A DNA stretch of 60,252 bases from a virus (IMGVR_UViG_2562617057_000007), one strand, 5' to 3'; numbered from the stretch's first letter, positions 59,685 through 60,252 are shown. The notes: generated by a model not told the origin, from the letters alone. Program-made: numbers and translations.

Positions 59685-59714
59685 GTACTGTTTTTTTCTT
59701 TAAAAAAACAGTAC
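59685..59714. promoter_or_regulatory. perfect 13 bp inverted repeat, MxiE-box-like
   Basis: GTACTGTTTTTTT-CTTT-AAAAAAACAGTAC; on the ipaH strand reads GTACTGTTTTTTTAAAG, close to the remembered MxiE box GTATCGTTTTTTTANAG. Confidence 0.4.
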
Positions 59715-59811
59715 ATTCTATTTTATAATGACTGTGTATTCCCATGGAAGGAGATCACCCAATTCTCCCCCCGACTTTTGACGCAGTGTCTTGTTAACAG
59801 GGGGATTTACC

Positions 59812-60252
59812 ATGCTTATTGGCTATGTACGCGTATCAACAAATGACCAGAATACCGATCTACAACGTAATGCGTTGAACTGTGCAGGATGCGAGCTGAT
59901 TTTTGAAGACAAGATAAGTGGCACAAAGTCCGAAAGGCCGGGGCTGAAAAAACTGCTCAGGACATTATCGGCAGGCGACACACTGGTTGTCTGGAAGCTG
60001 GATCGGCTGGGGCGCAGTATGCGGCATCTTGTCGTGCTGGTGGAGGAGTTGCGCGAACGAGGCATCAACTTTCGTAGTCTGACTGATTCAATTGATACCT
60101 GCACACCAATGGGACGCTTTTTCTTCCATGTGATGGGTGCCCTAGCTGAAATGGAACGTGAACTGATTGTTGAACGAACAAAAGCAGGACTGGAAGCTGC
60201 TCGCGCACAGGGACGAATTGGCGGTCGCCGTCCCAAACTTTCACCAGAATAA
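59812..60252 (+). CDS. serine DNA invertase (Pin/Gin/Hin family), 3' end outside window
   Basis: MLIGYVRVSTNDQNTDLQRNAL...WKLDRLGRSM...GINFRSLTDSIDT... is canonical resolvase/invertase catalytic domain with Ser in VRVST; AGGGGG RBS. Confidence 0.9.
   Translation: MLIGYVRVSTNDQNTDLQRNALNCAGCELIFEDKISGTKSERPGLKKLLRTLSAGDTLVVWKLDRLGRSMRHLVVLVEELRERGINFRSLTDSIDTCTPMGRFFFHVMGALAEMERELIVERTKAGLEAARAQGRIGGRRPKLSPE

Follow-up and report, generated by a model that had tools for sequence, protein, structure and literature searches.

The right end of the prophage sequence analysed here (IMGVR_UViG_2562617057_000007; the window, as used below, is its whole length of 60,252 nucleotides) carries a serine invertase gene directly behind the gene of a type III secretion effector, and the question is whether these two neighbours form a working inversion switch or are the remains of one. 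Invertases of the Pin/Gin type normally border an invertible segment that carries alternative tail fibre C-termini. In the Din family, two inverted 26-bp crossover sites surround this segment, one of them lying just 5' of the invertase gene. The initial annotation of the locus had noted no such sites, and had proposed that the effector gene took the place of the alternate fibre cassette, leaving an orphan recombinase behind. The features on which the present analysis relies are collected in Table 1.

Table 1. Features of the fibre-ipaHb-pin region at the right end of the window.
Feature	Position	Strand	Basis or remark
Tail fibre gene 1	52334..53566	+	Invertible-type variable C-terminus from about aa 174
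Probable relic inner half-site GGTTTACAGTAA	52819-52830	+	Constant/variable junction of fibre gene 1
tfa1, tail fibre assembly gene of the fibre-1 cassette	53569..54114	+	Pfam Caudo_TAP
Second (side) tail fibre gene, phage_tail_N	54138..56742	+	Split by IS2 at ~54403-55733
DUF4376 gene, at the fibre assembly gene position	56693..57316	+	Pfam DUF4376
ipaHb, type III secretion effector E3 ubiquitin ligase, 608 aa	57496..59322	-	LRR_TTSS + NEL
ipaHb-specific upstream region (promoter + long 5' UTR)	59323..59789	-	Found in ipaHb loci only
Perfect palindrome, 16-nt arms	59682..59717	.	ipaHb MxiE box, minus strand
Last ~20 nt of the native pin leader, with ribosome-binding region	59790..59811	+	
pin (pinE/pinF-like) serine invertase pseudogene	59812..60252	+	Pfam + pinE DNA identity

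The recombinase is of the Pin/Gin type, as had been recognised from the start. Its product matches the Pfam Resolvase N-terminal domain (E 6.8e-51) and the Gin invertase structures 4m6f and 3uj3 (E ~1e-75; 8e-76 for 4m6f), and the DNA is 94.8-95% identical to e14 pinE from about 59790 onward. The product begins MLIGYVRVSTNDQNTDLQRN, its catalytic serine motif VRVSTNDQ is present and its catalytic domain is whole. The 146 codons of the reading frame encode, in all, this domain, helix E and a short arm. The last codon of the window (60250-60252) is TAA, a CAA-to-TAA nonsense change at codon 148 (Q148*); e14 and NCTC9022 both read CAA at this position (...RRPKLTPEQWAQAG...). In loci that extend beyond the window, the remainder of pin, which codes for the helix-turn-helix (HTH) domain, is open in frame past the TAA (WAQAGRLIASGVSRQKVAIIYDVGESTLYKRFP...). 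The product aligns to residues 1-144 of the 193 of Gin, with the stop falling at about Gin residue 146, and neither Pfam nor the alignment to the Gin structure reveals an HTH DNA-binding domain encoded ahead of the TAA. In Hin, Gin and gamma-delta resolvase, the HTH domain is needed to recognise and bind the crossover site. Judged by its sequence, pin is a dead gene, truncated before its DNA-binding domain. The description of the gene as an orphan recombinase is correct in that it has been left without sites, and falls short in that the gene is a pseudogene and not merely an orphan.

This lesion is shared by related loci. Every ipaHb-linked copy of pin that could be read past the stop was checked, and Q148* is common to EIEC VL40, S. 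flexneri 1a 0228 and six further contigs (L013-L018); the position of the stop is identical in all the pin copies examined. The exact 146-aa product was read in 24 contigs of public assemblies, and all six places listed with it have ipaHb on one side and yfhH, pgpC, tadA, mltF and purL on the other. RefSeq describes the near-identical copy of EIEC VL40, a locus 99.6% identical to this one, as pinE with an 'internal stop'; pin is an ordinary, already annotated remnant, neither a working switch nor a new one. In another lineage, that of FDAARGOS_943, the gene has shrunk to its first 96 nt, which suggests that no selection acts to keep it. The copy in the window further has TGC (Cys) at codon 97 (60100-60102), a S97C change in the conserved DTS(T/S)PMG motif; AGC (Ser) stands there in EIEC VL40, S. 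flexneri 0228, e14 and NCTC9022. This second lesion is specific to a sublineage that includes L013-L018. The Fis-dependent recombinational enhancer in the 5' part of the gene is probably retained, because this coding region is ~95% identical to e14 pinE.

A role of pin as the integrase of the prophage was considered and rejected, given the tyrosine integrase gene at the left end of the window (470..1873), which is probably the prophage integrase; no small invertase of the Pin type is known to integrate a phage.

What lies in front of pin is informative about how the locus came to be. BLAST similarity to intact pin loci starts at 59794 (e14), 59798 (NCTC9022) or 59800 (Xuanwuvirus), that is 12-18 nt before the pin ATG, and the right-hand crossover site, pixR, occupies positions -80 to -55 relative to this ATG in e14 and NCTC9022. 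The ~470 nt upstream of 59790 occur in ipaHb loci only, in 6 of 5426 E. coli genomes, and the sequence further 5' of 59790 was matched in none of the non-ipaHb genomes of this set. Since similarity to intact loci begins only ~20 nt before the ATG and pixR would lie at -80 to -55, both pixR and the native pin leader have been replaced. In intact systems, the place of the ipaHb-specific stretch is taken by pixR and the pin promoter, and sigma-70 promoter-like sites 5' of pin occur at chance level only. The initial annotation had let the recombinase feature begin at 59685; the gene starts only at 59812, and 59685-59811 is the ipaHb promoter/leader region.

This region contains a conspicuous palindrome, the right arm of which reads GTACTGTTTTTTTAAAG on the minus strand (59714..59698). 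It differs at two positions from GTATCGTTTTTTTANAG, the consensus of the MxiE box. A MxiE box has been reported for ipaHb, with G6, T10, T12 and A16 being essential (Bongrand et al., PMC3299695), and all four are retained in GTACTGTTTTTTTAAAG. In the same work, ipaHb measures 1827 bp and its 5' UTR was cloned to +331 (PMC3299695), which fits a start site ~340 nt ahead of the ATG at 59322. The upstream region of the ipaHb class comprises 491 conserved nt with A-rich and T-rich tracks (Dranenko et al., PMC9046306), to be compared with 489 nt for the distance between ipaHb and pin. The match to the MxiE box, together with the size and the tracks of the upstream region, indicates that 59682-59717 is ipaHb regulatory DNA and not a recombination site. 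The left arm of the palindrome forms a weaker MxiE-like box (GTACTGTTTTTTTCTTT) directed towards the pin stump, and divergent MxiE-dependent transcription into the pseudogene is conceivable.

Crossover sites were searched for with a half-site weight matrix, built from the sites of e14 and Xuanwuvirus P88_4B11 and from the textbook hix and gix sites. Real pix, gix and hixL sites score 24.6-32.0 bits and hixR, with one degenerate half, 18.6 bits; the sites of the intact systems scanned (e14, Xuanwuvirus and NCTC9022) range from 24.6 to 30.8 bits. The matrix finds exactly two sites each in e14, in Xuanwuvirus P88_4B11 and in the NCTC9022 prophage, the last being an independent control left out of matrix building. 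No full crossover site was found by this matrix in the 60-kb window, where the top score of 14.3 bits falls within the chance range of shuffled sequence (mean 12.5, maximum 18.0 bits). The 10 kb 3' of the window end, scanned in loci with the identical Pin product, likewise held no site (best 9.5 bits), so that the search proposed in the initial annotation, within the window and downstream of it, yields no paired sites. A search of the window for the AAACCNNGGTTT pattern with at most one mismatch gave a single match, at 39676, dismissed as a lone, chance-level match in the head gene region. An inverted-repeat search of 50000-60252 returned the IS2 ends, one local palindrome and weak chance pairs only; the same tool recovered the e14 sites pixL and pixR as well as those of a P2-like phage.

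Several candidates were discarded on closer inspection. Inverted pairs around ipaHb, 55938/57513 and 56750/58841 among them, are imperfect as well as short, and bear no resemblance to crossover sites. The heptamer TTCTCCC at 59763-59769 recalls the outer end of e14 pixR (TTCTCCCAAACC...), and was rejected because the remainder is mismatched (-5.3 and -14.1 bits) and because it lies 49 nt from the ATG instead of 80 nt; a 7-mer is in any case expected several times by chance. A MAFFT alignment that put 59737-59760 under pixR was rejected as forced, with 10 matches out of 26 and the AAACC core absent. The initial impression that the region is devoid of crossover sites thus holds for full sites by pattern, matrix and inverted repeats, and has to be qualified for one probable half-site.

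This half-site lies in fibre gene 1. Residues 174-410 of the fibre 1 product are 54% identical to residues 439-716 of the invertible fibre of Xuanwuvirus P88_4B11, a stretch that begins directly after the crossover site of that phage, and the end of fibre gene 1 and the start of tfa1 match both the forward and the inverted cassettes of Xuanwuvirus, at 72-74%. From these two matches, fibre gene 1 and tfa1 are recognised as a cassette of the invertible-segment type. At its constant/variable junction, GGTTTACAGTAA scores 12.4 bits, the third-best half-site in the window when both strands are counted. It agrees at 11 of 12 positions with GGTTTACAGGAA, the inner half of the full sites of Xuanwuvirus and FDAARGOS_943, it aligns with the position of pixL, the left-hand site, in e14, NCTC9022 and Xuanwuvirus, and the similarity of fibre 1 to the Xuanwuvirus variable part starts about 13 codons past it. 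It lies in another reading frame than its full-site homologues, and the sequence around it has diverged; where the outer half should lie, none is recognisable (-18.9 bits). We regard 52819-52830 as probably the surviving half of pixL, with some room left for chance.

The other side of the locus is the effector gene, and its position directly in front of the invertase, on the minus strand, is as initially described. Its product carries PF12468 (the N-terminal LRR_TTSS domain) and PF14496 (the C-terminal NEL E3 ligase domain); near-identical copies are named ipaHb in RefSeq, and its size equals the 1827 bp reported for this gene (PMC3299695). With LRR_TTSS, NEL and an upstream MxiE box, it belongs to the IpaH/NEL effectors of the MxiE regulon. 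All fibre and assembly genes are on the plus strand, and ipaHb is the sole minus-strand gene ahead of pin: the alternative fibre C-terminus and assembly genes which a Din-family system carries in opposite orientation are absent. Between fibre gene 1 and ipaHb, the side tail fibre gene is split into fragments matching positions 1-91 and 84-132 of the phage_tail_N profile by an IS2 (match of 1331 nt, terminal repeats at 54410-54442 and 55691-55723); it is uninterrupted in EIEC VL40. In VL40, a separate IS2 copy splits fibre gene 1 instead, so that the same fibre module has taken independent IS2 hits.

The side fibre gene (stf), the DUF4376 gene and ipaH form a module that is found elsewhere. It also ends a lambdoid prophage with ipaHe, at 99% identity over 55873-58278, the end of this similarity lying within the conserved NEL-coding half of ipaH. 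The sibling myovirus prophages with ipaH3 and ipaHa end in stf-DUF4376-ipaH as well, and have no invertase. The order is the same in phage phiP27, with fibre, tfa, stf, L57 and attR. Since the module ends prophages devoid of an invertase, ipaH here occupies the usual position of a moron behind the fibre genes; among the ipaH copies, that of ipaHb alone abuts an invertase gene. In EIEC genomes, ipaHa, ipaH3/Hc, ipaHd and ipaHe each lie behind stf-DUF4376, in up to seven places per genome. Similarity between these loci extends from the fibre gene as far as the NEL-coding half of ipaH and ends at the LRR part, a pattern which suggests that the alleles are swapped by recombination between conserved arms.

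How the ancestral locus may have looked can be read from relatives found with the 686 nt from the pin stump to the host junction as query. This right end occurs at 97-98% identity in non-invasive E. coli (NCTC9022, UPEC 26-1 and DEC5E among them). NCTC9022 has a myovirus prophage at the same yfhL/yfhH site, with a right end 92-97% identical, and this prophage ends with baseplate J, DUF2612, fibre (+), tfa (-), fibre C-terminus Sv' (-), pixR and a full-length pinE, its inversion module having 231-nt inverted arms and the two crossover sites scored above. Across the baseplate genes and the constant part of the fibre, FDAARGOS_943 and NCTC9022 share 97.7% identity, and this similarity ends at the centre of a crossover site. 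This is a full pixL-type site, CTCTCGAAAACC TT GGTTTACAGGAA, which scores 27.5 bits and lies in the fibre gene (positions 3672-3697). Past its centre come a cassette of the window type, then tfa, stf, DUF4376, ipaHb and the 5' end of pin, and pixR is absent. Such a layout supports a replacement within a single prophage of the NCTC9022 type. The lone site of FDAARGOS_943, a recombination junction, could still be a target for a Pin acting in trans.

The idea that the effector replaced an alternate cassette is supported in its core by NCTC9022, by the breakpoint in front of pin and by FDAARGOS_943; it is the whole stf-DUF4376-ipaHb module, not the effector alone, that replaced the cassette and now abuts pin. 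No intermediate with both ipaHb and pixR was found among the compared loci. At 99% identity, the window shares its structural genes with the sibling ipaH prophages without invertase, which makes the present element a mosaic. Later recombination among ipaH prophages must therefore have occurred, and the pin end may come from a different prophage than the baseplate.

The gene has been identified and is truncated, full sites are absent, the breakpoint has been located, and an intact homologue occupies the same chromosomal site. Taking these results together, we hold with high confidence that the locus, which forms the right end of a myovirus prophage inserted at yfhL/yfhH in the Shigella/EIEC lineage, is a fossil Pin-type switch for tail-fibre inversion. 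The ancestral module would have consisted of the fibre constant part, pixL, a variable part with tfa, an inverted tfa' with variable', pixR and pin. The stf-DUF4376-ipaHb module now fills the region between a point within the invertible segment and a breakpoint ~20 nt ahead of the pin ATG, and its entry would have removed the inverted cassette, pixR and the promoter and leader of pin. Separately, Q148* has deprived pin of the HTH needed for binding crossover sites. The fibre genes and ipaHb would since have been fixed in one orientation, with ipaHb expressed from its own MxiE box. With the HTH, pixR and the inverted cassette all missing, the locus should be unable to invert anything. We infer the order and the mechanism of these replacement events from a handful of present-day loci.

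An unlikely alternative is a fusion of two prophages. An ipaH myovirus would have come to lie beside what was left of a resident NCTC9022-like prophage, either through integration or through homologous recombination with a sibling prophage, and a deletion would have fused the DNA upstream of ipaHb with pin at position -20; ipaH would then never have displaced a cassette of its own phage. The 99% identity of the structural genes to the ipaH3/ipaHa siblings, which end after ipaH and have no invertase, would fit this route, as would the lambdoid ipaHe prophage, which likewise ends after ipaH, and the stretch from pin to attR, which is of the NCTC9022 type. It is opposed by FDAARGOS_943, where the NCTC9022-type baseplate and fibre constant part run unbroken (97.7%) to the site and are followed by the module and pin, and by the space between ipaHb and pin, where there is neither a second phage gene set nor any attachment-site remnant.

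A more speculative proposal, to which we give very little credence, is that prophages acquire fibre modules with an effector gene by way of Din-family crossover sites, which would act as points of entry. The switch of FDAARGOS_943 at the very centre of the 26-bp site would fit an invertase-catalysed exchange that imported ipaHb, the enzyme being lost afterwards. As a weaker variant, the palindromic MxiE box could drive divergent expression of the truncated catalytic domain under type III secretion-active conditions, and the product could interfere with other Pin-family enzymes.

That the recombinase is still active, as an orphan working in trans on remote sites through the truncated protein or through read-through of the stop, appears scarcely more than a theoretical option. 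VRVSTNDQ and the catalytic domain are intact, the HTH frame is open downstream, and an orphan Pin is reported to act in trans (PMC12529663). Against these points, the product ends near Gin residue 146 of 193 and misses the HTH domain, the nonsense codon is fixed in all the pin copies examined, with S97C in addition in that of the window, the native promoter and leader are gone and promoter-like sites are at chance level, and another lineage has kept just 96 nt of the gene. Hardly credible at all is an inversion of the ipaHb segment through non-canonical sites beyond the Din-family consensus, giving phase-variable effector expression: ipaHb does lie on the opposite strand directly before the invertase, in the position of an inverted cassette, with a palindrome between the two genes, but no inverted pair flanks it (the candidates are short, 71-94% complementary and not crossover-like), the palindrome is the known MxiE box region of ipaHb, the enzyme has no DNA-binding domain and a single orientation is seen in 10 of 10 public loci. 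In these ten independent loci, the assemblies of which give the majority state only, ipaHb and pin keep the same relative orientation; in nine of them 611 nt separate the beginning of pin from the 5' end of ipaHb, and in L012 626 nt. This agrees, if weakly, with a frozen locus.

The fossil switch can be placed among known systems. The P-pin system of e14 (pinE, pixL/pixR, stfP/stfE, tfaP/tfaE) shares with it ~95% recombinase DNA identity, a pin gene at the end of the fibre module near the prophage end, and a junction motif at the position of pixL. It differs by its full-length Pin of 184 aa, its two 26-bp sites 1797 nt apart and its inverted tfa and fibre C-terminus, whereas in the window pin is reduced to a stump of 146 codons, full sites and an inverted cassette are lacking, and ipaHb stands in place of the latter. 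The prophage of NCTC9022 (with those of UPEC 26-1, DEC5E and others) resembles it in the insertion site and in the order from baseplate J, DUF2612 and fibre to pin, small ORFs and attachment site; unlike the window, it retains pixL, pixR, the 231-nt arms, the inverted cassette and a full pinE, and has no ipaH. In the baseplate genes and the constant part of the fibre, the window and NCTC9022 are no more than distant relatives, with 26% identity between the DUF2612 proteins. Tominaga and colleagues are said to have described, in J Bacteriol in 1991, a defective pinF of S. flexneri of the same origin as e14 pin. This fits a pinE-like pseudogene in Shigella.

Other Pin genes in decayed prophages, PinQ (Qin) and PinR (Rac), have no adjacent invertible segment either (PMC12529663), and PinQ, which is full length, inverts the P segment of e14 in trans (PMC12529663). 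The likeness is that of an orphan Pin in a cryptic prophage, the difference being that the pin of the window is truncated before the DNA-binding domain; the trans action of PinQ is inapplicable here because the required domain is missing. On the effector side, the locus resembles the effector morons of the Shigella ipaH 'islands', with their own promoter, on the opposite strand and after the last fibre-associated gene, and the stf-DUF4376-ipaH unit recurs across unrelated prophage backbones. In the P2-like phages SopE-phi and Fels-2, sopE adjoins the fibre/invertase region.

The correct reading of the locus is that of a pin pseudogene together with the ipaHb promoter, not of an active phase-variation switch, and flipping of ipaHb or of the fibre genes is not to be expected. 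It represents a clean case of prophage decay in Shigella/EIEC, where a moron module with an effector gene has overwritten a host-range switch for which an immobilised prophage has no further use. The loci compared form a graded series of decay, from NCTC9022 (intact) through FDAARGOS_943 (one site) and the window (a half-site) to the lineage with 96 nt of pin, and this series could be used for teaching or for dating the acquisition of ipaHb. The pseudogene is already known in RefSeq. Beyond correct annotation, the import of these observations is small.

At 9222-14498 of the window, two adjacent genes encode tyrosine recombinases with Phage_integrase domains (456 and 516 aa), followed by an overlapping ORF of 800 aa with no Pfam match, a layout which resembles a multi-recombinase mobile element inserted in the early region of the prophage. 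A complete type I restriction-modification system lies on the minus strand at 23987-31453 (hsdR, 1095 aa; hsdS, 394 aa; hsdM, 507 aa), accompanied by two small ORFs; EIEC VL40 has phage replication genes there instead. An IS66-family transposase gene occurs twice (523 aa each, at 19012-20583 and 21736-23307, ~2.7 kb apart), and an IS21-like pair (390 and 266 aa) is found just upstream, at 16613-18582. Such a heavy IS load is typical of Shigella.
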